From Crocosphaera subtropica ATCC 51142 (lineage in GTDB: Bacteria; Cyanobacteriota; Cyanobacteriia; Cyanobacteriales; Microcystaceae), in NCBI RefSeq assembly GCF_000017845.1, contig NC_010546.1, positions 4,800,001-4,832,000 of the forward strand: a stretch of DNA of 32,000 nt. The letters are read 5' to 3'. A program made the translations under genes and the position numbers. Shown in pieces: positions 2,706 to 19,822 of the stretch. Position 1 is the first letter of the stretch. The number at the start of each line of letters is the position of its first letter. Under the pieces are notes generated by a model. That model searched no databases and was not told the origin of the DNA. It worked only from the letters and a program-made list of their open reading frames with translations.

Positions 2706-2736
2706 TTTCTTTAGTTAAATAGAACAATAATTTAGG

Positions 2737-4149
2737 TTAAGAATTACTCGTTTTCGGTAAATTCGGACAAAATAGTTCTGGTTTTTTACGAACCCCTGGC
2801 AGTCCTAACACCGTTACTAATAAGAAAGTACGAGTACAAGTTAAAGCCGTAAACATACTAACTAATACCCCAATAGCCAACGTTAAAGCAAACCCTTTAA
2901 CCAACCCAGACCCCAAACCAAATAAAGCACCACAGGCGATTAAAGTGGTAACGTTACTATCGATAATACTAGAAAATGCTCGATAAAACCCCGATTCTAC
3001 CCCACTATACAAGGTTTTGCCACTGCGTAACTCTTCACGGGTGCGCTCAAAAATTAAAACATTGGCATCGACGGCCATGCCAATACTAAGAATAAACCCG
3101 GCAATGCCCGGCAGGGTTAACGTAACACCGATCAAAGAATAACAAGCTAATGTTAAGAGCGTGTAAATAGCTAAAGCTAAATCCGCTAAAACTCCAGGCA
3201 GTCGATAATAAACCCCCATAAAGATTAAAACTAACACTAAACCAGCCACAGCAGCGTAGATACTGCGTCGAATACTATCCCGTCCCAACGTTGCCCCAAC
3301 GGTGCGATTTTCCACTACTTCCACAGGGAAAGGTAAAGAACCTCCCCGTAACTGTACCGCTAACTCGTTAGCGGTTTCGGCGGTGAAATTCCCTGTAATG
3401 ACCGCACTTCCCCCAGTGATACCAGCAGCAGCAAATTGAGGCCCCACCACCGGCGCACTAATTAAGACATCATCCAAAAAGATGCCAATACTGCGACCAG
3501 TTCCGGCGATATTTTTCGTTAATTCTGCAAACTTTTGACCCCCTTCGTTATCAAAATCGATAATAACCTCCCATTCTGTCCCTTGGGTGGGGCCATAACG
3601 GGCATTTTTCAGGTTTTTACCAGATAATCCTACCGACTCAAACAGGGCTAAAAGGGCTTGATTTGATTCTTCGATAGACTCAGTTAATTCAGCAATGCGT
3701 TGTTCTTCTTCGGGGGTAGGTTCCCCTTGTCTGAGAGCCTCTAATTCTGCTTCTTTTTGCTGTCTAATGTTAAATTCAACCGGTAGTTGCCCTTCAGTCC
3801 CCTGACGTTGTTGACGGAACTCTAATTGTGCCGTTCCCCCTAATACCCGTTCTGCTTGTTCAGGATCGGTGACTCCTGGCAACTGCACCACAATTTTATC
3901 TTGTCCGAGGGTTTGCACCACCGGTTCTGCTACCCCTAAGCCATCCACTCGGTTTTGGAGGACGGTTTTCGCTGCTTCTAAGTCCTCTTGGGAGATGGTT
4001 TGCACGTCTTCGGTGGGTTTGAGTTGAATCGTTAATTGGGCCCCACCCCTCAAGTCTAAACCCAGTTGTAACGGGATAGTATTAAGAAGGGCGATCGCAC
4101 CAATCACCAGGGCGATAATAAAACCGATCAACAAACGTCGTTGTTTCAT
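2737..4149 (-). CDS. secD: Protein translocase subunit SecD
   Basis: 470-aa ORF with GLDLRGG, a large periplasmic loop and a C-terminal membrane block (SIGMAVDANVLIFERTREE) typical of SecD. It forms the classical secDF pair. Confidence 0.95.
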   Translation of the reverse strand: MKQRRLLIGFIIALVIGAIALLNTIPLQLGLDLRGGAQLTIQLKPTEDVQTISQEDLEAAKTVLQNRVDGLGVAEPVVQTLGQDKIVVQLPGVTDPEQAERVLGGTAQLEFRQQRQGTEGQLPVEFNIRQQKEAELEALRQGEPTPEEEQRIAELTESIEESNQALLALFESVGLSGKNLKNARYGPTQGTEWEVIIDFDNEGGQKFAELTKNIAGTGRSIGIFLDDVLISAPVVGPQFAAAGITGGSAVITGNFTAETANELAVQLRGGSLPFPVEVVENRTVGATLGRDSIRRSIYAAVAGLVLVLIFMGVYYRLPGVLADLALAIYTLLTLACYSLIGVTLTLPGIAGFILSIGMAVDANVLIFERTREELRSGKTLYSGVESGFYRAFSSIIDSNVTTLIACGALFGLGSGLVKGFALTLAIGVLVSMFTALTCTRTFLLVTVLGLPGVRKKPELFCPNLPKTSNS

Positions 4150-4182
4150 ACTGGAGTCTTTTGTAAGGGTTTGGGACTATTT

Positions 4183-4220
4183 GGAGCAGGGGAGCAGGGA
4201 GCAGGGGGAGCAGAGGGAGA
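4183..4220 (+). repeat. Purine-rich GGAGCAG-type heptamer run with four G3+ tracts
   Basis: GGAGCAGGGGAGCAGGGAGCAGGGGGAGCAGAGGGAGA sits in the pdhB-secD intergenic spacer. A C/T-rich tract (CTTCC-type units) follows at 4237-4276. Confidence 0.5.
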
Positions 4221-4276
4221 AATATAGGTATAATTTTCTTCCTACCCTTCCCGCACTTCCTACACTTCCCACACCC

Positions 4277-5260
4277 CTAAATATGCAGTGTCATTAACTT
4301 ATCCACTGCTTCAGAAATTTGGGGGGGTTGGACAATGGTCAATCGTTCTAACATTCCATTGTAAGGGGTAGGAATGTCTTGAGAGGATAAACGAACCACC
4401 GGCGCATCTAATTCATCGAAAAAGTTATCATTAATTAAAGCAATTAATTCCGCTGCGATCCCGCCGGTTTTCATACATTCTTCAACAATGATCACTCGGT
4501 GAGTTTTGCGGATAGAGTCCCCAATGGTTTGTAAATCAAAGGGTTTTAGGGAAATTAAATCAATAATTTCGGGATCATAACCTTGTGATTCAATTTGTTT
4601 TAAAGCCTGTAAACAATGATGACGCATTCTCGAATAGGTCAGAATGGTGACATCTTTCCCCTCTCTGACAATTTCGGCCTTATCTAAGGGGACGATATAT
4701 TCATTGTCGGGGAGGTTTTCTTTTAAGTTGTAGAGTAAAACGTGTTCAAAAAAGAGAACGGGGTTTTCATCTCGAATGGCTGCTTTGAGGAGTCCTTTGG
4801 CATTATAAGGAGTTGAACAGGCCACAATTTTTAAGCCAGGAACCGCATGGAAATAGGCTTCTAACCGTTGGGAATGTTCAGCCCCTAACTGTCGTCCTAC
4901 CCCCCCAGGGCCACGAATGACCATCGGAATTTTAAAGTTTCCCCCAGAGGTATAGCGTAACATTCCGGCGTTGTTGGCGATTTGGTTAAAGGCTAATAAT
5001 AAAAAGCCCATATTCATCCCTTCAATGATGGGTTTTAACCCAGTCATTGCAGCACCTACCGCCATTCCGGTAAAGCTATTTTCTGCAATGGGTGTATCGA
5101 GAACCCGCAGTTCTCCATATTTTTTGTAAAGATCCTTGGTAACTTTGTAGGAACCGCCATAGTGACCTACATCTTCCCCCAAGACAAATACTGTGTCGTC
5201 TCGTCCCATTTCTTCATCAATGGCTTGACGCAGGGCATTAAATAATAAAGTTTCTGCCAT
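4277..5260 (-). CDS. pdhB: Pyruvate dehydrogenase E1 component, beta subunit
   Basis: 327-aa [24 protein letters not shown]...[23 protein letters not shown] is a typical transketolase-like pyrimidine-binding E1-beta layout. Confidence 0.93.
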
Positions 5261-5594
5261 ATATTTATACTAATTCCTTGCCTTTGTTATCCTATCATCA
5301 CAGCCCTACATTTTATCGTTTTTGGAAAGCTATGAAGCTTTGTTTGTATTAAATTTTCACAATACAGTCATAAAAATGCAGACTTTTTCTTCATAAAAAG
5401 CTGTTTTTATCTATCCTTAGCTTAAGGATGAATAATGATTTTTGCTAAACTCTCACCGATGGAATAAATCACTAAAATTTCAGTTTCATCATTAATAAAA
5501 ATGATTAAATAACTAGGTCATAAGGTAGAGGGAATCAAATATTTTAATAAATAACATAGATAAAAGATGAAGAGTAATTAGAAGGAAACTTGAT

Positions 5595-6434
5595 ATGGCA
5601 CTCATAAAAATAGAAGATTACAATCCTAACTATGAAGATAGTATTTTACATGGACATCGGTTGAACAGTTTTGATTTATATACCAGTGCTGACGGAAACA
5701 GAGTTGGCTCGGTGCGTGATATTTTAGTCGATGAATCAGGAAAAATACGTTATTTTATCATCGATACTGGATTTTGGATTTTTGGTAAAAAAGTCTTATT
5801 ACCCATCGGTTTGTGTCGAATTGATTACACTAAAGGCCGTGTTTATGCTTCTAACTTAACCGAAGCACGAGTTAAGGAACTACCGAGATATGATGAAGAT
5901 ACAACGGTAGATTATACCTATGAAGAGAAAGTAAGAAATATTTATCCTGTTCCCGAAAGACGTTATGCAGCCAATCAACATGACGAATCTAGTTATGATC
6001 ATGACGATCATGATCGTGATCTATTTGGTGTTCGAGAAGAGGATCACGGAATTCTCAAGCTTTACGAAGAACGGTTAATTGCTGATAAGAATCGCCAAAA
6101 AGTGGGAGAAGTGGCTGTCGGCAAAAGCATTGAAACACAGCAAGCTGAAGCTTCTGTCCCAGTTGAAAATGAACGAGTCGTAATTGATCGTCGGACTCCT
6201 ACCGATCCACAAGAACCGGTACCGAGTCACGAAACTGACTTTAGTAACGAAGAAGTTGCTCGTCTAGAAATTCACGAAGAAACAGCTAATATTGAGAAAG
6301 AAGCTTTTGTCAGTGAAGAAGTCTCTGTGAAAAAAGAAGTTGATCGAGATGTCGTTACTGCTCAAGAAAAATTGCGTCGAGAAAAACTGGATCTTGATGT
6401 AGAAGGAAGACCTACTGTTGAGCATAATCGGTAA
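5595..6434 (+). CDS. PRC-barrel plus DUF2382 (YsnF/AvaK-like) stress protein
   Basis: 279-aa ORF. The N-terminus resembles a PRC-barrel (VRDILVDESGKIRYFIIDTG). The C-terminal half carries the DUF2382 pattern LKLYEERLIADKNRQKVGEVAVGK...VENERVVIDR. A GAAGGAAAC purine tract precedes the ATG. Confidence 0.75.
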   Translation: MALIKIEDYNPNYEDSILHGHRLNSFDLYTSADGNRVGSVRDILVDESGKIRYFIIDTGFWIFGKKVLLPIGLCRIDYTKGRVYASNLTEARVKELPRYDEDTTVDYTYEEKVRNIYPVPERRYAANQHDESSYDHDDHDRDLFGVREEDHGILKLYEERLIADKNRQKVGEVAVGKSIETQQAEASVPVENERVVIDRRTPTDPQEPVPSHETDFSNEEVARLEIHEETANIEKEAFVSEEVSVKKEVDRDVVTAQEKLRREKLDLDVEGRPTVEHNR

Positions 6435-6442
6435 ATTTTCTT

Positions 6443-6513
6443 AGGAGAGAAAGCATTTGTGATCACTATATTCTTGATGATCAAGGGAGATAATGCTTTC
6501 TCCTATTTTCTTT
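6443..6513 (+). terminator. Candidate intrinsic terminator (long hairpin plus T-rich tail)
   Basis: GAGAAAGCATT (6447-6457) pairs perfectly with AATGCTTTCTC (6492-6502). The stem is extended by AG/CT across a 2-nt bulge and followed by TTTTCTTT (6506-6513). It starts 9 nt after the stop of 5595-6434. Confidence 0.45.
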
Positions 6514-6536
6514 AGGTTTTATATTAGGTAAAAACT

Positions 6537-6938
6537 ATGAAATCTCAATTATCTAATCATAACTCAAATAATAATCAAGACGAGATTAAATTATTACAAG
6601 AACGGTTGAAAGTGGAACGAGAAAAAGAGAAAGTTGGAGAAGTAATTGTTCGCAAAGAAACTGAAACCAAAGTTGCTATTGTTCCTCTACAGCAAGAAAA
6701 GTTAATTGTTGAGCAAGTTAATACTGATAATTCTCAAGTAGAAAAAATAGCAGAAGTTGATCTTAAAAAAAGTCAAGTTAGGGAGCAAAGAGTTGAGTCC
6801 GAAAGTGCATCAACTATTAAAGAAAAATTTAATTCTTGTCAAGAAGCTACAGATTATCTCCAAGACATTGTTCGAGAGTTATCGAAACAAGTTACTGCAG
6901 TAGAAATTAAACTAACTGTTCATAATAATCAAAATTGA
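6537..6938 (+). CDS. DUF2382-domain small protein
   Basis: 133-aa ORF. IKLLQERLKVEREKEKVGEVIVRKETETK...QQEKLIVEQV repeats the DUF2382 pattern of the preceding gene. Confidence 0.6.
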   Translation: MKSQLSNHNSNNNQDEIKLLQERLKVEREKEKVGEVIVRKETETKVAIVPLQQEKLIVEQVNTDNSQVEKIAEVDLKKSQVREQRVESESASTIKEKFNSCQEATDYLQDIVRELSKQVTAVEIKLTVHNNQN

Positions 6939-6940
6939 CC

Positions 6941-7112
6941 TTAAGATAAATGACTCATTATCAGAAAATCAGGTCTTTCTAAAATTTTTTCATAGGCCTT
7001 TTTTACCTGAGAAATATTATTCATTAAAGAATCTTGATCTAATACCCCTTATCTAGCTTTTTGTCTTGATAATTGGGTGATTTCCTTATGCTCCCGAAAC
7101 AAGGTAACAGCA
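6941..7112 (-). pseudogene. Decayed copy of the 3' end (~54 codons) of a GT4 glycosyltransferase gene
   Basis: The minus-strand translation is LFREHKEITQLSRQKAR*GVLDQDSLMNNISQVKKAYEKILERPDFLIMSHLS*. The intact gene end at 13810-13981 reads LFRDHHEITLLLGQKARQRVLDKYSLTNNISQVEKVYEEILGRPNFPMMSHLS*. Both share the same stop position, and the fragment has one in-frame TAA at 7049-7051. Hand alignment of the first 102 nt from the stop is ungapped with 85 identities. There is no upstream coding continuation. Confidence 0.7.
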
Positions 7113-7259
7113 TTTTATTTTTACCCTAATGGTTTTCAAATTGAGTGATTAAATAAACAATAACAGTGAGATTTAGATCACTCGTTACTTATACTGATTT
7201 ATCTATAATTTATATATTATTAGTCTAGTTATTTATTTTGAATACAGTTTAACACCTTT

Positions 7260-9389
7260 ATGTTAACTAATGTACTACAAACAAAGACCGATCAAGATAA
7301 CAAACATATTCTAGCGTTTAATTTAACAAATAATCAGCAAATTATTCATCTAGAGGACTCTCAATATTCCATTGGGCGAAGTCCTGAAAATTCTATTGTC
7401 ATCGAATCTGAGGCGATTTCTAGATTTCACGCTACTATTCTTAAACAGATCAATAAAGATGGAGAGATTTCCTTCGTTATTATTGATGGTGTGCCTAGCG
7501 GAGAACCTAGTCGCAACGGCTTATTTATTAATGGCAATAAGTGCTTAAAACATAAGCTAGAACATGGTGATATTATTCAATTTGAACCCGAAACCCAAGC
7601 GAATTACTATGTTCTTCAGAAAAAAAGTGAAGAATATATCAAAAATCTTCTCCCTAGAGTTTCTGCTAAGACAACATCTTCTTTTCCTTCTTTTCTTCCT
7701 CCCACTTCCAACGAACCAGTCAAACAAACCTTAATTGTCGCTGAACCAGACTTAAGTCATTCCCTCGCTGATTTTCAAAAATTTGCTTCTTTAATTGAGT
7801 TAAGTCCTAATCCAATCCTAGAAATTGATTATCAAGGAAAGCTCATTTATGCTAATTCGTCTGCTAAACTACACTTTCGGGATTTAAAGCAAACCCAGAT
7901 GAATCATCCCATTGTTCGAGGATTGTTCAATAATAATGAAAGCCGTCAGGGAAACTTATTAGTTCGTGAAATCACTATTGGTCAGGTGGTTTTTGAGCAA
8001 CACATACACTATCTTCCTCAAGAAAAATTAATTAGATGTTATCTCTTTGATGTTACCCAGCGACGAGAAGCCGAAGAAATTCTTAAGTATAAAGCCTTTC
8101 ATGATGAGTTAACAGGATTACCGAATCGCGCTTTTTTACATGAGCATCTGTCTCTTGCTTTAGGTAATGCACAAAGAAATAAGAGCTTAATGGCAATTTT
8201 ATTGTTAGATGTGGATGGGTTTAAAAATATTAATGATACCCTCGGACATAGTATAGGGGATTTAATTTTAAAATGCTTTGCTAAACGGTTACAATCACAA
8301 GTTCGGCAAGGAGATTTAGTTTGTCGTTGGGGAGGGGATGAATTTATCATTCTACTATCTAGAATCAAAGAACCTAAAGAGGCTGCACAATTTGCTGAAA
8401 GACTTTTAGAGGTTTTTAAACATCCCATTACCGTAGAAGGAAATCTAATTTACCTAAAATCGAGTATTGGAATTACTATTTATCCCGAAGATGGTCAAGA
8501 CCAAGAAACACTATTGAAATCGGCGGATTTAGCTTTATATAAAACTAAAAATAGTGGTCGGAATAATTATCAATTTTATCATTCCAAGATGGCTAGTGAA
8601 ATGAAAGCGGAGTTTGAACTAGAAAATGCTCTACATAAAGCCGTAGAACAGGAAGAATTTTATCTTCATTATCAACCCCAAGTGAATATTAGAACGGGAA
8701 AAATTGAAGGAATAGAAGCACTGATTCGTTGGGAAAGTTCGAGTTTAGGTCCTATTTCGCCACAAAAATTTATTCCTTTAGCAGAGAAAACAGGGTTAAT
8801 TCAGCCCATTGGTGAATGGGTCATTAAACAAGCGTGCCAGCAAGCAAAAACTTGGCAAAATATGGGCTTGGAATTCTTGAAGATTGCCATTAATTTATCC
8901 CCCCAACAATTTCAGCAATTTAATCTCATCGACAGAATTAACGAGATTTTACATTCCACTCAATTACCTCCCCAATTCTTAGAATTAGAAGTGACTGAAT
9001 CAAGTTTGATGCAAAACATTGATTTAACCAGAGAGACTTTAAAAGTCTTTCGAGACATGGAAATATCAATTTCAATGGACGATTTTGGAACGGGACATTC
9101 TTCCTTAGCCTATCTCAAACAATTTCCATTCCAAACCCTGAAAATTGATAGGTCTTTTATAAAAGACCTTCATAATAATACTCAAGAACAAGCGATTGTT
9201 GCAGCAATTATGACCTTAAGTCGTGGCTTAAATTTAAGGGTTGTGGCCGAGGGAATAGAAAACACTGAGCAACTCAATATTTTAAAAACCCTTGAATGCG
9301 AACAAATGCAAGGTTATTTTTTTAGTCGTCCTTTAAGCGCACAAAAAATGATGTTTTTTCTAAGCAATTTTCAAAAAATAAAAGACTGA
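7260..9389 (+). CDS. FHA-PAS-GGDEF-EAL multidomain c-di-GMP protein; all catalytic signatures intact
   Basis: 709 aa. FHA: YSIGRSPENSIVIESEAISRFHATI...RNGLFINGNK...HGDIIQF. PAS: around LIELSPNPILEIDYQGKLIYAN. GGDEF: RQGD-LVCRW-GGDEF (GGDEF codons at 8331-8345, with an RxxD I-site 5 residues upstream). EAL: EALIRW, INLSPQQF, LEVTES, DDFGTGHSSL, LKIDRSF, EGIEN, QGYFFSRP. Confidence 0.9.
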   Translation: MLTNVLQTKTDQDNKHILAFNLTNNQQIIHLEDSQYSIGRSPENSIVIESEAISRFHATILKQINKDGEISFVIIDGVPSGEPSRNGLFINGNKCLKHKLEHGDIIQFEPETQANYYVLQKKSEEYIKNLLPRVSAKTTSSFPSFLPPTSNEPVKQTLIVAEPDLSHSLADFQKFASLIELSPNPILEIDYQGKLIYANSSAKLHFRDLKQTQMNHPIVRGLFNNNESRQGNLLVREITIGQVVFEQHIHYLPQEKLIRCYLFDVTQRREAEEILKYKAFHDELTGLPNRAFLHEHLSLALGNAQRNKSLMAILLLDVDGFKNINDTLGHSIGDLILKCFAKRLQSQVRQGDLVCRWGGDEFIILLSRIKEPKEAAQFAERLLEVFKHPITVEGNLIYLKSSIGITIYPEDGQDQETLLKSADLALYKTKNSGRNNYQFYHSKMASEMKAEFELENALHKAVEQEEFYLHYQPQVNIRTGKIEGIEALIRWESSSLGPISPQKFIPLAEKTGLIQPIGEWVIKQACQQAKTWQNMGLEFLKIAINLSPQQFQQFNLIDRINEILHSTQLPPQFLELEVTESSLMQNIDLTRETLKVFRDMEISISMDDFGTGHSSLAYLKQFPFQTLKIDRSFIKDLHNNTQEQAIVAAIMTLSRGLNLRVVAEGIENTEQLNILKTLECEQMQGYFFSRPLSAQKMMFFLSNFQKIKD

Positions 9390-9435
9390 GTAAGCTCATA
9401 GTAATTCTCATCTTTGACTCATTTTATTTAATTGC

Positions 9436-10272
9436 GTGATAGTTATGCAGACCAATGTAAGGAATAACTCTAATATGACCACAGACTCAAATGTATTAAA
9501 AATGAAAACGGCACTAGAACAAGCTCTTGATAATGAGGAGTTTGTTTTATACTATCAACCTCAGATCAATGTCGAAACAGCGAAAGTGTCAGGGGTTGAA
9601 GCTTTAGTGCGTTGGAATCACCCGAAGTTAGGGCTAATCTCCCCCGATAAATTTATTGCTGTGGCTGAAAAAACAGATTTAATGGGGCGACTGGGCCAAT
9701 GGATTTTAAAAAGAGCTTGTCGTCAAAATCAAGTGTGGAAAAATCAAGGTTTACCTCCTTTGATTATTTCTGTTAATCTTTCGCTTTTTCAATTACAAGA
9801 CCCTAATTTTAGGGATATGGTCAAGGAGGTCTTAGAAGAAACCAAACTCCCGGCAACCTCTTTAGAATTAGAAATTACGGAAGCAATAATTTTAGCTAAT
9901 CCTGAGATGGTTCATCAAACTTTACTCAATTTGACACAATTGGGAGTTTATCTCTCGTTAGATGATTTTGGCAGTGGTTATTCTTGTCTTAATTATCTTT
10001 CTAAACTTCCTTTTGGAACTCTGAAAATTGCTCAGTCTTGTATCAAAAATCTGACTAAGGATTATCAAAATATTTCCTTAGTTTCCGTCATTCTCGCCGT
10101 TGGGAAAACTTTAGATATTCGTGTGGTGGCTGAAGGCGTAGAAACACAGCAACAACTGGATATATTAAAGAATTTACATTGTCCAGAAATGCAAGGATAT
10201 TTTTTCAGTCAACCTTTAACCCCAGACGAGGTCACTCAGTTTTTCGCTTTATCTCAGAGTTCAACAAGATAA
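9436..10272 (+). CDS. Stand-alone EAL-domain protein
   Basis: The track ORF starts at GTG 9436, and the first ATG is at 9445. Motifs: VEALVRWNH, VNLSLFQL, LEITEA, LDDFGSGYSCL, LKIAQSC, AEGVET, MQGYFFSQP. There is no sensor domain. It is the closest paralog of the EAL part of 11882-13696. Confidence 0.85.
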   Translation: MIVMQTNVRNNSNMTTDSNVLKMKTALEQALDNEEFVLYYQPQINVETAKVSGVEALVRWNHPKLGLISPDKFIAVAEKTDLMGRLGQWILKRACRQNQVWKNQGLPPLIISVNLSLFQLQDPNFRDMVKEVLEETKLPATSLELEITEAIILANPEMVHQTLLNLTQLGVYLSLDDFGSGYSCLNYLSKLPFGTLKIAQSCIKNLTKDYQNISLVSVILAVGKTLDIRVVAEGVETQQQLDILKNLHCPEMQGYFFSQPLTPDEVTQFFALSQSSTR

Positions 10273-10592
10273 AAACATAATTTTTTCGTGATTGATATCA
10301 TATCACTTGGTGATTGAGTCCATCACTTAGTAATTATAATTAGATAAGTGAAAAAAAGAAATAAAACTTGTAATTGAAATCACTGCTTTGTCCTCACAGG
10401 TGAGTTATTTTTGTTAAAGAATAAAAATTTCCTAGTTACCGCTGAAAGCATCTAGATAATTGAATCTCTAGACTATGAAGATTCCACTAATAATTAAAAA
10501 GTCCTGTTAACCTTTAATTATTAAAAGTATCTTCACAGATAGATAAAAAATTAGTCTTTTCAATATTTTACAAGAAATGAAATATTAAAATC

Positions 10593-11876
10593 ATGAATAG
10601 TGTACTAATGAACCAAGAACATCATCAAGTCTTAAACAATAAATATACACATCCACAAACTATTCAGGAATTTGATAGCATTTACGAACATTTTGTGTAT
10701 TATATTCAAATGGAATCTTCCTTTGAAGTTCTATCTCGTTTTCGCCTGTTAATAGAGGCAGAAAACTATCCAGACCCAAAAATTTTAGAGAGCCTTACTC
10801 AAACTCTTCGTAGCCAGTCGAATTCCCTTGATTTTAATTCTTTTTTTAATCGTTGCTGTCAGCTTTTCATTAGCTATTGGTCACAAACACCTGACAATGA
10901 ATCAGCAATGTTTGAGTTACTAAGTTTATTTAAAAATCTACCTTCTTCTCACAACAAAAGCGATCAATTTTCTCAAAAGTGGCAACAATCTATAACAGAT
11001 TTTGCTAAATCTGCCCAATATCTAAAACTACAAAGACTGGTTCGGTTGATTAATCCTCGTCTTGTTTCAGATGCACCTAAACCGCAATATTTAGGGGACT
11101 TAATTGGTCGTTATCCCTTCCTTTATAAAAATTGCTTACTTGATAAGGATGATCTTAGAGAGTACCGTCATTTATTAAGTCGCATCAGAAAAGAAAAACA
11201 ACATATTCTTAAACAAGGCTTTAGGAGAGGCATAATATTTCAAAAACAAAGACTTGAAATCGCTCGTCTTCGTCAAGTTTCCCCTGAAACCTTATTATCA
11301 TTGAGGCAACCAGCTAAACACCTAACTTTATTAAATGATAAAGAATACACCATTGCCCTACGACAATTCATTCCATTAACTCAAGGAAATTTATTTTTAG
11401 GATATCAAATTAACCAATTGAGAAATAATCTAGACGGTCTTAGCTTCAAGGAATTCAAAAATTGGTTTATTAACTATTTGCTACAAGATATCAATGAGTT
11501 ATCCAAAAGAGAGCAATTTAAGCAGTTTCTTAATAATAAGATCCCGCTGATAGCATCCTCATCTGATTATGATTCTAAACAGATAGATGAATTTCTTATT
11601 CAACGAACGTCTCATCAAGTGTTAAATGGATTAATCGGTTATCAAGGGCAAAATTTTAATTACCAAACTCTAGTTGACTTAATAACTGATTTAGGAGCTA
11701 CTCAAATAGCGAGTGTAATCGGCAAATTGTTATTATTAAATCCTCGGTTAAGAAATTATGTCACCTCCCAATTATCAGAATTGTTTTGTTTTCATGAATC
11801 AAAATCAATCTCTAACTGTGTTGGATTAATTCAGTTTTTGGAAAATTATTTAATTATCTGGAGCATTATTGCATAA
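10593..11876 (+). CDS. Hypothetical protein, 427 aa; no domain I recognise
   Basis: Long ATG-initiated ORF in the same orientation as its neighbours. Its stop lies 5 nt before the next start (11882). It looks mostly helical, with a basic central segment (RIRKEKQHILKQGFRRGIIFQKQRLEIARLRQ). No motif is recognisable by eye. Confidence 0.6.
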   Translation: MNSVLMNQEHHQVLNNKYTHPQTIQEFDSIYEHFVYYIQMESSFEVLSRFRLLIEAENYPDPKILESLTQTLRSQSNSLDFNSFFNRCCQLFISYWSQTPDNESAMFELLSLFKNLPSSHNKSDQFSQKWQQSITDFAKSAQYLKLQRLVRLINPRLVSDAPKPQYLGDLIGRYPFLYKNCLLDKDDLREYRHLLSRIRKEKQHILKQGFRRGIIFQKQRLEIARLRQVSPETLLSLRQPAKHLTLLNDKEYTIALRQFIPLTQGNLFLGYQINQLRNNLDGLSFKEFKNWFINYLLQDINELSKREQFKQFLNNKIPLIASSSDYDSKQIDEFLIQRTSHQVLNGLIGYQGQNFNYQTLVDLITDLGATQIASVIGKLLLLNPRLRNYVTSQLSELFCFHESKSISNCVGLIQFLENYLIIWSIIA

Positions 11877-11881
11877 AAGTC

Positions 11882-13696
11882 ATGAATCATCATCATCAGA
11901 CTCGTCATCTTCTCATTATCGAAGACACAAAATATCGAAGAACCTTATCATTGCAAGATGAAATCTATTCCATTGGGCGGAGTACCCATAATTCCATTGT
12001 TATTTATTCTGAGCAAGCATCTCGGCATCATGGAACCTTAATGCGTCGAAAAAATCGCCGAAGCAATGAGGAAACCTATTGGATTCTTGATGGAGATATG
12101 GATGGAAATAAAAGTCGAAATGGGATTTATGTTAATGGAGAAAAATGCTCCGTCAGAGAACTCAAACAGGGGGATTTAATTAACTTTGGTTGCGAAGTCA
12201 ATGCCACCTTTTATACGATGAATGGCTGGTCAGATACCATTATTCCTCTTAGGGAGGATAAACAAGATCATCTAACCAAAAGTCAATCAAAATCTGTTAG
12301 TGTTTCTGACCATAATATTGAATTACCCCATTCTCAGGTTCTCAATTCCACAAAAACCCTCAATCCTAAAGCTACCCTAAATCCTAAAGCAACCATTCAA
12401 GGACAAAATTATCAAGATCCTTTAACCAAATTAGCCAATCAACAACTATTTAGACAATCTCTATCCATTGCCCTCAAGAATGCCACCTTGAAAGAGTCTC
12501 CTCTGGCTCTGCTCTTCTTAGATATTAATCAGTTTGGTGCCATTAATGAAAAGTGGGGCTATTCTACAGGAAATCTTATTTTACAAGAAATAGCAAAGCG
12601 ATTAAATTCTAGTGTCAGAGGCAGTGATATCGTAGCCCGTTGGGAAGATGACCAGTTTGTCATTCTTTTTCCTAGAATTCGGAAATCTCAGGAGTTCGAG
12701 AAAATCTCTCAAAGAATTCTCAATACTATCGAGCAACCATTACTTATTTCAGAACATAAATTTTCTTTAGAGTATAGTCAAGGTATTGCTATCTATCCCC
12801 AAGATGGTCAAGAAGTCGACACCCTTTTGAGAACGGCTGAAATCAACTTATTCAATTATCAGCAAAAAAGTGTGTCCAAGCGGCCATTAAGTCAATTTGT
12901 CATCCAAGATAAAGAATCAAAACTATTCAAGGCAAAAACAGCACTACAAAAAGCACTTGAACAAGAGGATTTTCTTCTTTATTATCAACCTCAAGTTAAT
13001 CTTGAGACAGTCGGCGTGTCAAAGATGGAAGCCCTTATCCGTTGGAATCATCCCCAGTTAGGTCTAATTCCTCCTAATAAGTTTGTCCCTTTAGCCGAAC
13101 AAACCCAACTAATCTGTGCGCTGGGGGAATGGATTTTGAAGACAGCTTGTTCGCAAAATATCGCTTGGCAAAATCTTGGTTTACCTGCTGTAACTGTCTC
13201 TGTTAATATATCTCCTTACCAGTTACAAGATCCCAACTTTGTCAAAGTTGTTAAACAAATCTTGAAAGACACACAAATGAACCCTCAATGGTTAGAACTA
13301 GAAGTTACTGAAGAGGCTATTTTTACTAACCCAGAAATAGCTCATCAAACTTTACTAGAGTTAAAACAGCTAAACATTAATCTGTGTCTTGATGACTTTG
13401 GCAGTGGTTCTTCTTGTTTGAATCATCTTGTAAAATTTCCTTTTGATACTGTGAAAGTTGCTCAGTCTTGTGTAAAAAAATTAAACAAAGACAAGGAACA
13501 ATTTACTGTCATTTCAACTGCTTTAACTTTGGCCAAAGGTTTGAACATCCGAGCCGTTGCCGAAGGGGTAGAAACACAGCAACAACTGAATATATTAAAG
13601 AATTTGGATTGTCAAGAAATGCAAGGTTATATCTTTAGCGAGCCTTTAACCCCTGAAGAAGCCAGTCGCTTTTTATTCTCACATTTTAATACCTAA
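11882..13696 (+). CDS. FHA - degenerate GGDEF (EDDQF, RxxD I-site retained) - EAL protein
   Basis: 604 aa. FHA: YSIGRSTHNSIVIYSEQASRHHGTL...RNGIYVNGEK...QGDLINF. GGDEF-like: RGSD-IVARW-EDDQF (12644-12658). EAL: MEALIRWNH, VNISPYQL, LEVTEE, LDDFGSGSSCL, VKVAQSC, AEGVET, MQGYIFSEP. Confidence 0.9.
   Translation: MNHHHQTRHLLIIEDTKYRRTLSLQDEIYSIGRSTHNSIVIYSEQASRHHGTLMRRKNRRSNEETYWILDGDMDGNKSRNGIYVNGEKCSVRELKQGDLINFGCEVNATFYTMNGWSDTIIPLREDKQDHLTKSQSKSVSVSDHNIELPHSQVLNSTKTLNPKATLNPKATIQGQNYQDPLTKLANQQLFRQSLSIALKNATLKESPLALLFLDINQFGAINEKWGYSTGNLILQEIAKRLNSSVRGSDIVARWEDDQFVILFPRIRKSQEFEKISQRILNTIEQPLLISEHKFSLEYSQGIAIYPQDGQEVDTLLRTAEINLFNYQQKSVSKRPLSQFVIQDKESKLFKAKTALQKALEQEDFLLYYQPQVNLETVGVSKMEALIRWNHPQLGLIPPNKFVPLAEQTQLICALGEWILKTACSQNIAWQNLGLPAVTVSVNISPYQLQDPNFVKVVKQILKDTQMNPQWLELEVTEEAIFTNPEIAHQTLLELKQLNINLCLDDFGSGSSCLNHLVKFPFDTVKVAQSCVKKLNKDKEQFTVISTALTLAKGLNIRAVAEGVETQQQLNILKNLDCQEMQGYIFSEPLTPEEASRFLFSHFNT
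12356..12391 (+). repeat. Tandem 18-nt duplication inside the FHA-GGDEF linker
   Basis: accctcaatcctaaagct followed by accctaaatcctaaagca (16/18 identical), encoding TLNPKA-TLNPKA. Confidence 0.6.
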
Positions 13697-13809
13697 TGAG
13701 AAAGAACACAATAATTGTTTACTCGTTGCAAAAGATGGTAATCGTAATGTATACACGACATTAGAAAGTTAATCAACATGGTTAAACCGATTAATCAATA
13801 AAATTCCTG

Positions 13810-14961
13810 TTAGGATAAGTGACTCATCATAGGAAAATTGGGTCTTCCTAAAATTTCTTCATAGACCTTTTCCACCTGAGAAATATTATTAGTCAAAGAA
13901 TATTTATCTAAGACTCTTTGTCTTGCTTTTTGTCCTAGTAATAGGGTAATTTCGTGATGATCTCGAAACAAGGGTAATAGGGTTTTTAATTGTGTGGTAA
14001 CACCCTGAGTATTTAACACCACGCCAGCCCCGTCTTCTAAGACTTCACCATCAGCCCCGGCATCGGTGGCAATACAAGCCACACCGCAGGCCATAGCCTC
14101 CAATAAGGATAAAGATAATCCTTCGACTAAAGAGGGCAAAATAAACACATCAGCAGCCCGTAAAATATCAATCCGTTGTTGTTCATCAGCCACAAACCCC
14201 AACCAATAGATCCCGTGTTCTGCATTATAAAAGGGTTCTAAGGAGGGTTTAAGGGGTCCATCACCGACAATTAATAATTTACTCCCATCACCCATACCAA
14301 CTTGTTTCCAAGCCTTTAACAAAGCTTCTACGTTCTTCTCTGTGGCAATCCGTCCCACATAGATAAATAACCGTTTAGCTTTTACATGGGACTTAATAGA
14401 CGACGGTCCAGGAGAATATTTAATCGGGTCAACGCCATTGGGAATAATCGCTAATTTATCTTGATGAACCCCCAATTTCATCAATAATTCTTGTTGTAGC
14501 CGAGAAAAAATAATAACTTTATCGTAATGGGCTAAAAACGGCGCATATAGCTGATAGGTTAAAAATTGGGTGCTAGACTTTAAATTCCGTAATTTGCTAT
14601 CAAAAGGGGGATGAAACGTGGCGATGAGGGGCAAATTTAACGCCTGACAAATTTCAGGGAGTCGGAAGTCCAAAGGGGATAAAGTCAGAGAGGCATGAAC
14701 TAAATCAGGTTTCAGTTTAGCCAAAGCATCCATCAAAATCTTACTCGATTTCGGAGTTGGGATGGTGTAAATTTGCGATTTATAAAGGAAGGGTAAGGCT
14801 ACTTCCCTACAGTCTCGCCAGTGCGCCGAGTTTGTCTCTTCTTGCGAAAAATGAAGAAAACTAACTTGATAACCTCGGTCTAGAAGGGCGTTTGTGATTT
14901 CCCGACCATAGGTTACATTTCCACAGAAAGGGGATTTTTTCCCAAGCCAAGCGATGTGCAT
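13810..14961 (-). CDS. Glycosyltransferase, GT4 (group 1) family
   Basis: 383-aa ORF. The C-terminal Rossmann half carries the GT4 signature (LIVGDGP...VFILPSLVEGLSLSLLEAMACGVACIAT). Confidence 0.85.
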   Translation of the reverse strand: MHIAWLGKKSPFCGNVTYGREITNALLDRGYQVSFLHFSQEETNSAHWRDCREVALPFLYKSQIYTIPTPKSSKILMDALAKLKPDLVHASLTLSPLDFRLPEICQALNLPLIATFHPPFDSKLRNLKSSTQFLTYQLYAPFLAHYDKVIIFSRLQQELLMKLGVHQDKLAIIPNGVDPIKYSPGPSSIKSHVKAKRLFIYVGRIATEKNVEALLKAWKQVGMGDGSKLLIVGDGPLKPSLEPFYNAEHGIYWLGFVADEQQRIDILRAADVFILPSLVEGLSLSLLEAMACGVACIATDAGADGEVLEDGAGVVLNTQGVTTQLKTLLPLFRDHHEITLLLGQKARQRVLDKYSLTNNISQVEKVYEEILGRPNFPMMSHLS

Positions 14962-15184
14962 TCAAATATAAAAACAGATAGTTATCACGAACCGATACAG
15001 AATAATTCGTTGTAATTGTATGGATTATAAGCATAAGCTACCCATAACTACAAGGGGAAACTTTGGGTACCTTGGCTAGTCTGGGAAGATAACTATCAGT
15101 TCAAGAGGGATTTTGACCGAGGCTTTTCCCTGGGAGGTAAGAGTTATCAGGATAAGGTTTGTGTAAAAATGGGATACTCCCAAC

Positions 15185-15763
15185 TCATCGCCCCCAAAGG
15201 GCTAATCCGCCCCCTCTTCCCCGTGCAGCAATTACATTATTTTCTATTAAAAAGTAAGTAAAAAAAGCTTGTTTTTTAACTTTTTCCTCATAAAATTTTT
15301 CTTCACTTTCTTTGCCCCCACGAATCTTACCTTGATAGAGATTAACATTGCCCAGAGTAATGGATATTTGGGTAAAGTCAAAAGCCAGAATATTTTTCGG
15401 GGATAAAAATTTAGCGGGGCCCGTTAACGTTAGGTTGATTGCACCTAATTTAATAGCGTTTTCGATAGTTCCTAGTGTAGAAGCCTTCGCTGGATGATAA
15501 GTTAGTTCAATCATCGCCCAACGGGGTAAATACCGTCCGGAACGTAAGACTACCCCGGCCTTATTTTGAGCTTGTTTGGTTCCTGTAATAAAACAAAGTC
15601 GCCAGGTTCCTTTTAATTGTTGGGGGGTATAAGAAGGTTTCGTTTGACGACTGGATTTTTCGGCAGCAACTAAGGCAAGAACTAACTGATCAGAAGGGGG
15701 TTTTTCCTCTTGTTTTTTCAAAGTCCAGCTCACAGCTTGTTGAAGACTCAATAGATAATTCAT
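15185..15763 (-). CDS. PAP/fibrillin-like conserved cyanobacterial protein
   Basis: The track ORF begins at a TTG (15790); I prefer the ATG at 15763 (MNYLLSLQQ...). LKGTWRL, the beta-rich body and the C-terminal ARGRGGGLALW recall plastid lipid-associated protein/fibrillin-type proteins. This assignment is from memory only. Confidence 0.5.
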   Translation of the reverse strand: MNYLLSLQQAVSWTLKKQEEKPPSDQLVLALVAAEKSSRQTKPSYTPQQLKGTWRLCFITGTKQAQNKAGVVLRSGRYLPRWAMIELTYHPAKASTLGTIENAIKLGAINLTLTGPAKFLSPKNILAFDFTQISITLGNVNLYQGKIRGGKESEEKFYEEKVKKQAFFTYFLIENNVIAARGRGGGLALWGR

Positions 15764-15805
15764 AACTTTATTAAACAGGACAATAAGCAATTGTGTTCTG
15801 TAGAA

Positions 15806-17428
15806 TTAATCAAATTCCGATTCAGGCATCAATTGTAAGATTCCCATAGCTAGGGTTTTTGGTTCAAGATATTGGGCTTCAAAGACTGCTAACATATCCT
15901 TTAAAGTAGGATTACCGCGAGAACTTCCTGTTACCCCCATTGCTACGACTAAACCGCAATAGCCTCCTGTTTGCTGACACCGTTGATCCCATTTTTTTCG
16001 AGCTTGTTGATGTTCTGGATCATTTTGCATAAATTCTCCGAAAATAAATAGAGAATTATCCCCCGTTTGTAAAATACCCAAATCGTACATTAACTCTTCC
16101 CAAGGGTCTTCTCCTGGGTTAAAACAAACCCCTTGAAGGTTGCCTGCTTCTTGGAGGGTTTGAATCATCTGTTTCGCTTTGGGACGAGAAGTTTGCACCA
16201 CAACCACTGGCATTCCTTCCCCTTTAGGGGTTGCCTGGTGAGAAGGGTAATAGGTTTTCGGGTTATGTTGTAATTGTTCTAAGGTATTCCAAGGCATGAT
16301 GCCTAAACTTAAAAATGAATTTTCAGGAATTAAATCATCCCCTAACGGAAACTTCAGTTTATTGTCTTCATCTTCTTCGGCTTCTAATCCTTCTAATAAT
16401 TCCGCCGTCAGTTCAGGAAGGGTTGATACTTTCAAATTAATCATCTTGGGTTCACCCTTTTCTGACATATCGGTGAAACGATGATTTTTTTGAATTTTAT
16501 CGATTACTTCTTCACTTAACGATAATTTATTCCGCTCAAAGAACCGTAAAAAAGCTTGTATCCCATAGTAAACAATTTTCGCTTCTTCTTCATCAAGAAA
16601 AGGACGAATACCTTCGTAGGGATGAATACTACCATATCGAGGTAAGGTTAACTCTCCTGGGCCATCTGCTTCATGGAAATCATACTCATCTTCGTCTAAG
16701 TCTTCAGCAAATTCAAAATTCAAAAACCAACAATCTTGAGCTAAAAAGGCTTGTTCAAGATCATGACCAGAGGTTTCATGGATGGCAGCTTGACGAAACT
16801 GTTTGAGAGACTCTAAAGAACGATAGAGAATAAGACCATATTCTTCTCCTGACATTCCCATCACGCAGCAATAGAGGGTATCGATGCCCCAACGGTTAAA
16901 TTCAAGGGAAATAATATCGTAATCGGCTAAAATATCCCAGGGCGCAGCTTTAGCTACATCATGAGCAGCTTGGGTTAATAAGGGTTCGTAATACCCTGGT
17001 AGGGCAGGGGGTCGGGTATCTTCAACCGCTTCAAAACTACGAAATAGTTGATCAATTAAGGGTAAATCGGGGGCATAATCAATGGAAATATCTAAAGTTT
17101 GTAAAGCCCCTCGCAGGAAAAATTGTAATTCTCGACTACGGACAACGATTTTTTGCGGTCGGGCTGGTTGGGCGGGACTATGAGGGGTTTCGATCGCCCG
17201 TAGGAGGGTTCTGACCACAACTTCTGGTCCTGCGTCGCAGGGGGCCACATCCATCGCCCTCACCACCCCTTGAGAGCCATCAACCCAGATGATACATTCT
17301 TCTTGGTTTGGGTTGCCCGAAATTCTGCCTCTGAGGCCTGCCACAGAACGGCGATCGCCTTCCCAAACGCTGGGAATTTGAGGAATTCTCTGAAGCCGAC
17401 GCTGGGTGGTTTGAGGCAAATTATTCAT
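15806..17428 (-). CDS. Conserved hypothetical protein, 540 aa, with acidic patches
   Basis: Long ATG-initiated ORF whose stop lies 42 nt (15 nt if the TTG start is used) upstream of the next gene. It has acidic stretches (EDLDEDEYDFHEADG, LEAEEDEDNK). I recognise no catalytic motif. Confidence 0.6.
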   Translation of the reverse strand: MNNLPQTTQRRLQRIPQIPSVWEGDRRSVAGLRGRISGNPNQEECIIWVDGSQGVVRAMDVAPCDAGPEVVVRTLLRAIETPHSPAQPARPQKIVVRSRELQFFLRGALQTLDISIDYAPDLPLIDQLFRSFEAVEDTRPPALPGYYEPLLTQAAHDVAKAAPWDILADYDIISLEFNRWGIDTLYCCVMGMSGEEYGLILYRSLESLKQFRQAAIHETSGHDLEQAFLAQDCWFLNFEFAEDLDEDEYDFHEADGPGELTLPRYGSIHPYEGIRPFLDEEEAKIVYYGIQAFLRFFERNKLSLSEEVIDKIQKNHRFTDMSEKGEPKMINLKVSTLPELTAELLEGLEAEEDEDNKLKFPLGDDLIPENSFLSLGIMPWNTLEQLQHNPKTYYPSHQATPKGEGMPVVVVQTSRPKAKQMIQTLQEAGNLQGVCFNPGEDPWEELMYDLGILQTGDNSLFIFGEFMQNDPEHQQARKKWDQRCQQTGGYCGLVVAMGVTGSSRGNPTLKDMLAVFEAQYLEPKTLAMGILQLMPESEFD

Positions 17429-17608: not shown

Positions 17609-19822
17609 TTAAATCACTTGATAGATAAAGCTTAAGGTTGACCAAGCTTTAACATCAAGGATATAGCTATCAGGGTTAGGATCAAGGAGTGTGTTGGTTT
17701 GGTTACTAGCAGTTTCTAAATCTTGTAGCAATGCTTTGGCTACTTCCAGGGGATTTTCCAGGGTGAGAATTTGATCCTTATCGGTTTTAAATTCTGATAT
17801 TCCTTTTAGGGTTTCTAGGGTTTTTTGAAAGGGAGCAATGGCTGCGATCGCTACAATATGTTCCCATCCTTTGGTGCTGGAGGTTGTCCAGGTTAGTCCG
17901 GTGGAGGTGGCGGGGATAAAGTCTTTCATTCCTGGTTCAATCAAGCGTTGATCATTCTCGCTGGCTTCTATTTCTTCTTCGTAAGGAGGAACATAGGCGA
18001 TGGCTTTCCCACTACTGTTGATACCTAAAACGAGATAATAAAGAGGTTGTTCTCCTAGATTTTCTAATCGATAACGTAGACGAGTCCCCCGGGGGACTTT
18101 GGGCAGTCCTGGAACATTAAGTGCTGAGGTTTCATTGGTATTCTCATCGGTGTTTTGTTGTACGGTCTTGATTTTAGCTCTGATGGTTTGCCGTTGTTCG
18201 ATGGCGTAGGGTTTGGGATCAAGACCTTCTAGGGTAACTCGCCAAGGGACTTGAGACGATCCTTCATTGAGGGTTAAGCCCCATAATTTCATGGCTAGGA
18301 GTTTTTCTAAGGTAGGACGTAACCGTTCAATGGCCGATTTGATCGCTTCTCCGGATTTCCCAAGGGTATTGGGGAGTTGTACCCCTCCTGGGAGAAACAG
18401 AGAGTAGGTTCCTGTTTCTTGGGTTTGGGAAGATGGGGACGAAAAAGAAGATCGTAACCCTAAAATACAGTCGATGGGTTGTTCTCCTTCTGTAAGGACA
18501 TCAGAAACAATGTCAATGGCTGAAAACGCACTGGTGGCATCCACTCGTTCAATCCGTTGTAATTGGGGATCGAGGGCAACGGTTAAGCCAATACTCTGGG
18601 GTAAACAACGAAGGGACTCTTGTAATAATTGTCCGACAGCTAAGGGTTCACTTGGGGTTTGTTCTGAAGAGAGTTGACGAACCTTAGCGGTGAGTCCATT
18701 GCGAGAACGAAGTTGTAAGGGAAGGGAGGATGATGAGGAGTTGAGGGGATAAAAAATAGAATTCGTGCCATAATATCGCACAATATTGGCAGGAAAGCCT
18801 GTTAAGGTCATGGTGGCTCTAGCAGAATCTTCTACACTACTGATAAAGGCTTCTGCCCCTTGAGATACGGGGGGAAGAAGATAATAGGTAAACAGGGGTT
18901 GAGAAGGGCTATTTTCTTGTTGGGGTTCTTGTTTTCCTCCCATAATAGGGAGTATTTGTTCTGTGGTTTTGTTGAGGGTTATATTCAGTCGGCTGGCCGG
19001 GACAGTGGACCATAAATGTTGTGTCAGAGCATAGGTAAAGAGTCCTGCACTAAAGCCGTTGCCTTTAATTTCTGTAGCCAGTTGTTGTGACCCGGCTGCG
19101 CTGAGAATGATACCGGCATTGGTTCCAGCTTTGCTTTTGGGGAGTTTTTGTTTCAGTTCTGCTTGAAAGGTAAATTCTTCCCGTTCTATGTTATCCGTAG
19201 GGTAAGGGAACGATCGCACCCTGAGATTCCCTTGAACGGTGTGACCGCTACTATGGTAACTGGTATCGAGTACCATCGTTACTTTATCTGTAGAAAGCGA
19301 TCGCCCTAATAACCTTAGGGTATCTTCGAGAATATTATCGGTGCTAGGGTTGCCGTTATTTAATGTGATGCCATCTTTAGCAATAATTCCGGGTAATTGA
19401 CCTTTGGTAAGGGTAGGAACAATATCAGGGGGAATATTGATATAATTTCCATAACCACTAAAGTGGAAGATGACCACATCTCCTGCTTTAGCTTGTTTAA
19501 TTAAATGTTCTACAAAGGCGGTTTCGATGCCTTGACGGGTTGCTTCTTTATCCGTCACGGTGAGAATATCTTGGGGGTTAAATCCGAAGCGATGAATCAG
19601 TAAGTCTTTTTGTCGTTCAACGTCGGTGACACAGCCTTTGAGGTTAAATCCTTGTCCATAATCGTTGATTCCCACCAACAAGGCTAGTTTCCGATGGGTT
19701 GGTTCTGCTAACGTTTGATAGTATTTCTGAAATTGTTGGGTTGGATTTAGCCGTGTCAGGCTTTCTTGAGCGACCCCCCAGGTGAGTAAGGTCTGTAAAA
19801 AAGTCCGCCGATCCCATTTCAT
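17609..19822 (-). CDS. Caspase-fold (peptidase C14) pseudo-orthocaspase with a twin-arginine signal and a long C-terminal region
   Basis: 737 aa. N-terminal MKWDRRTFLQTLLTWGVAQ looks like a Tat signal. The p20-like core reads KLALLVGINDYG...LKGCVTDV...GDVVIFHFSGYGN, where Tyr124 (codon 19451-19453) replaces the catalytic His. VTMVLDTSYHSSG sits where D-x-C-H-S-G is expected and contains no Cys. Confidence 0.8.
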   Translation of the reverse strand: MKWDRRTFLQTLLTWGVAQESLTRLNPTQQFQKYYQTLAEPTHRKLALLVGINDYGQGFNLKGCVTDVERQKDLLIHRFGFNPQDILTVTDKEATRQGIETAFVEHLIKQAKAGDVVIFHFSGYGNYINIPPDIVPTLTKGQLPGIIAKDGITLNNGNPSTDNILEDTLRLLGRSLSTDKVTMVLDTSYHSSGHTVQGNLRVRSFPYPTDNIEREEFTFQAELKQKLPKSKAGTNAGIILSAAGSQQLATEIKGNGFSAGLFTYALTQHLWSTVPASRLNITLNKTTEQILPIMGGKQEPQQENSPSQPLFTYYLLPPVSQGAEAFISSVEDSARATMTLTGFPANIVRYYGTNSIFYPLNSSSSSLPLQLRSRNGLTAKVRQLSSEQTPSEPLAVGQLLQESLRCLPQSIGLTVALDPQLQRIERVDATSAFSAIDIVSDVLTEGEQPIDCILGLRSSFSSPSSQTQETGTYSLFLPGGVQLPNTLGKSGEAIKSAIERLRPTLEKLLAMKLWGLTLNEGSSQVPWRVTLEGLDPKPYAIEQRQTIRAKIKTVQQNTDENTNETSALNVPGLPKVPRGTRLRYRLENLGEQPLYYLVLGINSSGKAIAYVPPYEEEIEASENDQRLIEPGMKDFIPATSTGLTWTTSSTKGWEHIVAIAAIAPFQKTLETLKGISEFKTDKDQILTLENPLEVAKALLQDLETASNQTNTLLDPNPDSYILDVKAWSTLSFIYQVI

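Follow-up and report, generated by a model that had tools for sequence, protein, structure and literature searches.

The stretch of DNA analysed here, called the window throughout, covers 32,000 nucleotides of the Crocosphaera subtropica ATCC 51142 chromosome (contig NC_010546.1, positions 4,800,001 to 4,832,000 of the forward strand), and positions given without a locus name are counted from its first letter. The subject is a block of four signalling genes, cce_4650 to cce_4653, which we call X and whose genes we number g1 to g4, that is flanked on either side by the 3' end of a glycosyltransferase gene (GT), on one side that of the intact gene and on the other a decayed copy. An initial annotation, made from the letters alone, had noticed this arrangement and had taken it as the footprint of an integrative island. 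The features at the locus are as follows, SU3 being the unicellular cyanobacterium that has the closest related GT locus.

5595 to 6434, plus strand: DUF2382L, a PRC-barrel/DUF2382 gene (Pfam; 87% amino acid identity to SU3)
6537 to 6938, plus strand: DUF2382S, a short DUF2382 gene (Pfam PF09557; 80% amino acid identity to the SU3 gene that abuts GT)
6898 to 6922, plus strand: probable extension of the left repeat copy, part of the last ~13 DUF2382S codons, the rest of which lie within 6923-6938 (weak colinear similarity to 13759-13791, p ~0.03)
6923 to 7116, minus strand: left repeat copy, decayed (BLASTN, translation, colinear alignment with the SU3 junction)
7117 to 13758, plus strand: X, the inserted segment, ~6.64 kb, cce_4650 to cce_4653 (missing in SU3 and at all other GT loci examined)
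7260 to 9389, plus strand: g1 (cce_4650), FHA-PAS-GGDEF-EAL (Pfam; 100% match to cce_4650)
9436 to 10272, plus strand: g2, a stand-alone EAL phosphodiesterase-type protein (Pfam)
10593 to 11876, plus strand: g3 (cce_4652), an Sll1247_N/Sll1247_C protein (Pfam)
11882 to 13696, plus strand: g4, FHA-GGDEF-EAL (Pfam)
13759 to 13791, plus strand: probable right-hand copy of the 3' end of DUF2382S, decayed and with indels (local alignment)
13792 to 13986, minus strand: right repeat copy, functional, the 3' end of the intact GT (95.3% identity to SU3)
13810 to 14961, minus strand: intact GT4 glycosyltransferase (Pfam; 69-96% amino acid identity in 80 cyanobacterial genomes)

When the window was compared with itself by BLASTN, the two GT ends were found as a direct repeat pair, 6923-7116 and 13792-13986, with 78.5% identity over 195 nt and an E value of 8e-41. 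At the offset of 6869 the ungapped comparison of 6941-7112 with 13810-13981 gave 134/172 identities (77.9%). The initial annotation had described a direct repeat of the GT 3' end at this same offset, and its hand count of 85/102 identities from the stop (6941-7042) was reproduced exactly. It had let the similarity run on to 7112-7130, which holds as far as 7116, whereas past that position the similarity is not significant. Beyond the repeat limits identity is at the background of about 20-30%, and no significant similarity was found between 7117-7260 and 13987-14400, nor between 6850-6922 and 13697-13791 except for the junction remnant described below. A simple tandem duplication (S-S) was rejected because the sequences preceding the two repeat copies show no such significant similarity. 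For the segment 6923-7116 the pair is unique within the window by BLASTN, and the sole other long repeat of the region is the paralogy of the EAL parts of g2 and g4. Just past the repeat boundary both X (from 7117) and the body of GT (from 13986) open with TTTT, a trivial match in AT-rich DNA that may be taken as a weak hint of microhomology. The left copy spans GT codons ~326-383, the stop codon at 6941-6943 and 18 nt further, and is contiguous with the DUF2382S flank. Its minus-strand translation corresponds to the last 57 GT residues with the stop codon at the same place, and it is interrupted by an in-frame TAA at 7049-7051 and preceded immediately upstream by several stops and stop-filled sequence only, just as the initial annotation had read it. 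The differences between the fragment and the intact copy fall on codon positions in the ratio 13/7/17, and among the 29 codons that changed, 20 changes are non-synonymous and 9 synonymous. Such a spread over all codon positions, with non-synonymous changes in the majority, is how a pseudogene would be expected to behave. Open reading frames and Pfam domains also bear out that the repeats enclose exactly the four plus-strand signalling genes (7260-13696), and the block that had been given as ~6.9 kb between the two GT 3' ends measures ~6.6-6.9 kb.

The GT protein was used to scan one genome per species, which gave 80 loci, and GT4 is a core cyanobacterial gene. The closest locus is that of SU3 (L004), whose GT is 96% identical in amino acid sequence. 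In SU3 the GT gene meets the orthologous short DUF2382 gene tail to tail, with a 9-nt overlap, and the long DUF2382 gene follows; none of g1 to g4 occurs at this locus. This is the empty site that the initial annotation had predicted for some relative, a DUF2382 gene directly convergent with GT. The window from 5423 to 7116 corresponds to L004 12669-10976 in one colinear 1.7-kb alignment (85.7%), so that the GT fragment and its DUF2382S flank are colinear with the SU3 junction, and 13810-15114 aligns to L004 11152-9848 (92.0%). A single SU3 segment, L004 10976-11152, thus receives both repeat copies of the window. Synonymous divergence (dS) from SU3 is 0.34 for GT, 0.27 for DUF2382S and 0.41 for DUF2382L, and from these similar values on either side of the insert we conclude that both flanks share one history. 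At the 80 GT loci from other genomes a second copy of the locus's own GT 3' end was found in none; the only other locus with such a copy, L001, is the window's own contig, and the weak second GT-like matches at a few loci reach only 23-29% amino acid identity. In a Limnothrix metagenome-assembled genome (MAG) a 62-nt sequence over the GT stop region (L073 12623-12684) is found again 1.5 kb downstream with 84% identity, probably as a short dispersed repeat unrelated to the present case. A metagenome scan with the DUF2382L protein for further close relatives of the site returned only matches of at most 54% identity.

The origin of the two GT ends was judged from their divergence. Compared with the SU3 GT 3' end the intact copy is 95.3% identical and the fragment 77.8%. 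The right copy diverges from SU3 by 4.6% and the rest of GT by 8.0% (Fisher p 0.16), and no change point in GT divergence from SU3 was detected (maximum chi-square permutation p 0.18). As there is no change point and the last 174 nt of the gene are no more divergent than the rest, the right copy, which restores the gene, is on this comparison native and not borne by an element. A foreign or donor-derived GT 3' end was rejected on the lack of a change point together with the similar dS of both flanks. The fragment departs from the intact copy and from SU3 alike at 35 sites; 26 of these are private changes of the fragment, and they are distributed over all codon positions. There are also 7 sites at which ATCC 51142 and SU3 have a state that is not seen in the outgroup Crocosphaera. 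Here the fragment agrees with the two strains in the derived state at 2-3 sites and with the outgroup at 3, and at 1 site it has a different base from either. The 2-3 derived states that are common to the fragment, ATCC 51142 and SU3 indicate that the fragment derives from the same GT lineage as the intact copies of both strains. The private branch of the fragment amounts to 35/174 differences, a Jukes-Cantor distance of ~0.23, which is at or slightly above the neutral divergence per lineage since the ATCC 51142/SU3 split (dS/2, ~0.17-0.19). By this measure the fragment would have branched off at about the time of that split or somewhat earlier.

The duplication probably reaches past the GT stop. 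When the 50 nt beyond the stop of the intact GT (13759-13809) were aligned with the last DUF2382S codons beside the fragment, the two were colinear with indels (p 0.029, shuffles). The same 50 nt aligned with the SU3 DUF2382S end with p 0.024 (shuffles), and for the sequences downstream of GT in five other relatives this test gave nothing significant. Across 6898-6922 the fragment copy is highly similar to SU3. From these alignments the duplicated unit is probably the whole tail-to-tail junction of the two convergent genes, so that the repeat would be 6898-7116 and 13759-13986 and the insert 7117-13758. In the left copy the DUF2382S half is probably functional and conserved and the GT half decayed, and in the right copy the reverse probably holds. 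Such reciprocal decay is what a local duplication of the junction predicts, and it is not expected of an incoming element that merely bears a GT end.

Mobile-element features were looked for in several ways. Pfam detected in the four genes only FHA, PAS, GGDEF, EAL and Sll1247 domains and no integrase, transposase or recombinase domain. The spacers of X (7117-7259, 9390-9435, 10273-10592 and 13697-13791, ~600 nt) hold no open reading frame longer than 33 amino acids and no remnants of one. There are no inverted repeats at the ends of X, no att-like repeats or copies of the boundaries elsewhere in the window or in 170 fetched loci, and no tRNA, tmRNA or Rfam elements at the site. A plasmid source for the block was also sought, and only short EAL-domain matches to unrelated plasmids were found and no homolog of g3. 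An insertion sequence or transposon was rejected as there is no transposase and there are no inverted repeats, and the duplication is ~195-220 bp where 2-15 bp would be required. The initial annotation had itself seen no integrase, transposase or terminal inverted repeats inside the block, and the Pfam, spacer and repeat searches agree with it. Its proposed mechanism, the integrative island, is not upheld: there is no recombinase, no att core, no foreign repeat copy and no recurring unit. Elsewhere in the window, at 26547-28346 on the minus strand, there is a complete reverse transcriptase/maturase of the group II intron type that includes an HNH domain (RVT_N, RVT_1, GIIM, HNH). It lies in a stretch with a strong AT skew of ~-0.3 some 12.5 kb from GT, and nothing ties this bona fide mobile retroelement to the insertion.

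The block had also been described as markedly more AT-rich than its surroundings. The lower GC stands, 34.5% in the insert against 38.9% in the rest of the window, but the GC content at third codon positions (GC3) of the insert genes, 0.25-0.31, falls in the range of the native neighbours (secF 0.23, DUF2382L 0.24 and the gene hyp201 0.30), and the AT content of the insert is equalled or exceeded in 16% of windows of its size. The highly iterated palindrome HIP1 (GCGATCGC) occurs 0 times in 4099-17350 (13.2 kb) and 9 times in the remaining 18.7 kb, the chance expectation for the whole window being 0.08. This gap spans the insert and the native flanks alike and is therefore no argument for a foreign origin. 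As the insert cannot be told from its native neighbours by GC, GC3 or HIP1 density, foreign origin by composition was rejected. The most AT-rich block of the window is 21500-25000 (GC 28-32%, GC3 0.18-0.24), with genes for a response regulator and an RR-PAS-AAA_35 protein and a gene of the Uma2 family (24173-24736).

The genes of X were compared with their relatives at other loci. g1 and g3 match cce_4650 and cce_4652 of C. subtropica ATCC 51142 (4.93-Mb chromosome) with 100% identity. In the translation of g1 the motifs RWGGDEF, EALIRW and DDFGTG are present, and its GGDEF and EAL domains are intact. The GGDEF signature of g4 is degenerate, RWEDDQF (EDDQF; window 12620-12640, codons ~250), with an intact EAL motif, and on this evidence the GGDEF domain of g4 is probably not a cyclase. 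The EAL, DDFG(T/S)G and EG(I/V)E motifs are kept in all three EAL domains. The block apparently has three competent EAL domains and one intact GGDEF domain, and it probably couples an FHA (phospho-threonine) input to a turnover of cyclic di-GMP (c-di-GMP) that is weighted towards hydrolysis. g2 and the EAL part of g4 are 59% identical in amino acid and 70% in nucleotide sequence (9483-10244 against 12913-13674, offset 3430 nt). For g3 only 9 homologs were found, the best non-self one at 47%, and its homologs (37-47%) stand alone (L084, L085). The closest relatives of g4 at other loci are at 76% (L091) and the others at 61-64%, and the g4-like clade at 61-63% adjoins a RodZ-like gene (L087, L090). 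Near pdxA there is a conserved pair of a g1-like and a g4-like gene (L089), of which the ATCC 51142 members are the paralogs cce_2788 and cce_2787 (53-55%), and Crocosphaera sp. UHCC 0190 (L092) has a pair of g1 and g2 (69% and 67%). In the metagenomic contig L091 (1-2410) g1 is followed directly by g4, at 80% and 76% amino acid and ~80% nucleotide identity, without g2 and g3, and the sequence downstream of its g4 is unrelated and not GT. The last ~12 codons of g3 overlap sequence that is homologous to the spacer between g1 and g4 in L091. A second duplication flanking g2-g3 inside the insert was indicated by weak similarity only and is unconvincing. The lack of g2-g3 in L091 together with the similarity of g2 to g4 points to a history of internal gain or loss of the block's own. 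Judged by these comparisons, the four genes are not a travelling unit and occur at other loci and in other combinations in relatives. A literature search for cce_4649-4654 found no paper.

The side of GT into which X is inserted differs between relatives. In the window the other genes on this side are:

1779 to 5260, minus strand: secF, secD and pdhB

The order GT ... pdhB-secD-secF is kept in the window and in three Crocosphaera MAGs (L005, L006 and L008), and upstream of GT synteny is conserved between no two relatives. The gene convergent with the GT stop is different in every Crocosphaera genome examined, the occupants being mostly signalling proteins, and in all these genomes it abuts the GT stop within 0-55 nt. 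The occupants are:

L005 1828-3432: TPR protein
L006 1540-3270: CHASE2-GGDEF
L008 11175-14047: Uma2, HTH, Ser/Thr kinase
L009 11171-11815: TsaD-like gene
SU3 L004 11144-12496, and also ATCC 51142: the DUF2382 pair

The GT-pdhB interval thus looks like a variable slot in Crocosphaera. A homolog of the Uma2-family gene at 24173-24736, 50% identical in amino acid sequence, lies directly downstream of GT in L008 (11175-11741), which suggests that accessory genes move between such slots. On the other side of GT, 17609-19822 on the minus strand encodes a 737-aa protein with a caspase domain (Peptidase_C14, metacaspase-like), upstream of a DUF6930/DUF7309 gene and a 201-aa orphan; the latter two have no counterparts beside GT in relatives.

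What is observed at this locus is the architecture R-X-R, in which R is the repeated junction sequence, together with an empty site, the native origin of both copies and no mobile-element features. Very probably this R-X-R structure is an insertion that is old and specific to the lineage. The best overall reading is that it is an old duplicative insertion which did not depend on a recombinase, and to this we give a probability of roughly 0.6. In the common ancestor of ATCC 51142 and SU3, GT4 and DUF2382S would have been convergent and abutting. X, 6.6 kb with the four c-di-GMP signalling genes, would then have entered the GT/DUF2382S junction, and R, ~195-220 bp with the final 57 codons of GT, its stop codon and probably ~13 codons from the end of DUF2382S, would have been duplicated. 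Each of the two convergent genes would in this way have kept a complete 3' end, DUF2382S by means of the left copy and GT by means of the right one, and the redundant half of each copy would have decayed neutrally, leaving the GT half at 6941-7116 and a DUF2382S half on the right that is barely recognisable. As to mechanism, we tentatively favour, at a little under even odds, a single recombinase-independent step. It would need two illegitimate or microhomology joins ~200 bp apart, and these could come from template switching during replication or from a DNA fragment captured between sister chromosome copies of a polyploid cell. The variant was probably retained by selection, as only an insertion that duplicates the junction would spare both abutting convergent genes from truncation. 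The one-step model is favoured because it requires the fewest events and explains why both gene ends are duplicated from local sequence. Insertions of the type ascribed to fork stalling and template switching (FoSTeS) or microhomology-mediated break-induced replication (MMBIR) consist of a copied or captured segment flanked by a target duplication of tens to hundreds of bp, with no transposase signature. Most documented events of this type come from eukaryotes and from experimental bacterial systems. The present locus resembles them in architecture, and only the trivial TTTT microhomology is seen at one of its junctions.

Several points weigh against this account. The site was compared in a single closely related genome, SU3. 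The one-step model would be a choice by parsimony, since joins of this kind leave no specific signature. The closest relatives of X (L091, ~80% nucleotide identity) have different genomic surroundings, and there g1 directly adjoins g4. The extension of the repeat past the GT stop is only marginally significant (p ~0.03). Finally, there are three sites at which a derived state is common to the intact copy and SU3 but missing from the fragment. The probability of chance reversion is here estimated at ~0.02, which hints at a duplication older than the split and, in that case, at a secondary loss behind the empty site of SU3.

From this last point follows the alternative that survives best, which concerns timing: R-X-R would have formed before ATCC 51142 and SU3 split, and SU3 would later have lost X by homologous recombination between the R copies. 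Direct repeats of ~200 bp are good substrates for such a precise deletion, the fragment keeps the outgroup state at 3 of the 7 sites where the intact copy and SU3 together differ from the outgroups, and its branch of ~0.23 is at or above dS/2. The excess divergence is, however, only ~1.3 standard errors, and the Nei-Gojobori (NG86) dS probably underestimates the neutral rate; moreover, 3 reversions among 39 neutral changes are unlikely yet possible. Parsimony is also against an earlier date, as X is missing in SU3 and at all other Crocosphaera loci, and protein searches found orthologs of g1 and g3 at more than 47-69% identity nowhere except in ATCC 51142 itself. An early duplication with later loss in SU3 is hence possible, though we would not call it probable, and it affects the date of the event and not its nature.

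A second alternative is that X came by homologous or homology-facilitated transfer from a relative that had X downstream of GT, either by homology-facilitated illegitimate recombination (HFIR), with the incoming DNA anchored through homology in GT and its other end joined illegitimately, or by a Campbell-type crossover with a circle that carried R and X. On both routes the fragment would be the former 3' end of the recipient. A single crossover with such a circle yields exactly R-X-R, and with slot occupants that differ in every Crocosphaera genome examined a GT-X donor is plausible. Orphaned 3' ends are known to arise by HFIR and by C-terminal displacement (PMC5361080), and the Campbell crossover and the C-terminal displacement seen in rhs, contact-dependent inhibition (CDI) and type VI secretion system (T6SS) orphan arrays resemble our locus in having repeats or orphaned 3' ends without a recombinase of the element (PMC5361080). 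Those systems, however, swap a variable 3' end and their donor is evident, while here the native end is kept, no donor arrangement was found and GT shows no detectable recombination tract. No adjacency of GT and X was found among 83 GT loci, sampled at one genome per species, or in L091, GT has no mosaic divergence against SU3, and the right copy has an apparent remnant of the DUF2382S end, which is unexpected if the donor slot never held DUF2382S. We consider this transfer unlikely.

The e14 element of E. coli offers the model for a third alternative, a decayed integrative element, in which an island bearing a recombinase and a replacement GT end would have integrated and later lost its integrase. 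In E. coli the e14 element in icd has a 163-bp pseudo icd' at its far end (PMC6379469), and the likeness is clear: in both cases the gene is intact, a copy of ~160-200 bp of its 3' end lies as a pseudogene across the insert, and there are empty sites in relatives (PMC6379469). The direct repeats that flank the insert and the empty site in SU3 match the e14 geometry. e14, however, has its own integrase and a foreign replacement end, whereas here there is no recombinase domain in the four genes and both copies belong to the host lineage; also, the duplication here seems to take in the tail of the convergent neighbouring gene, and the cargo genes do not make up a coherent element. If an integrase had been lost, some trace of it might be expected, since a pseudogene of the age of the fragment is still recognisable, but the ~600 nt of noncoding sequence in X holds no remnants of open reading frames. 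The insert does not recur as a unit elsewhere, neither repeat copy is foreign, and there is no tRNA or att-like core. The geometry is right and three defining features fail, and a decayed element of this type is very improbable. The weakest alternative, which the initial annotation had also offered, is that a second GT paralog was once present and was deleted, the fragment being what is left of it and having nothing to do with the block. A truncated end with a premature stop would fit such a relic. Fragment and flank, however, run colinear with the junction of GT and DUF2382S in SU3, derived states of the orthologous lineage are found in the fragment, and no second GT 3' end of their own exists at the 80 loci from other genomes, so that this idea is refuted and keeps practically no probability.

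As it stands, the locus is a footprint of a known kind, a duplicated gene end that flanks acquired DNA, and no new biological principle follows from it unless the pattern recurs. One lesson of it is that a duplicated gene end beside an accessory block is not enough to infer an integrase-driven island. It is also a case of gene gain at an intergenic site of zero length, in which the ancestral state, the insertion and the reciprocal decay can be read from the sequence. It is quite doubtful that recombinase-independent slotting of cargo between abutting convergent genes is general in Crocosphaera and that the GT slot, whose occupant differs in each species examined, has recurrently taken up signalling genes in this way. 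If this were true, and if R-X-R recurs at other convergent junctions of polyploid cyanobacteria, it would be a distinct mode of island formation that is invisible to island finders based on integrases. For the model diazotroph ATCC 51142 itself, the finding would mean that the acquisition of an extra FHA/c-di-GMP module can be dated approximately to its split from SU3.

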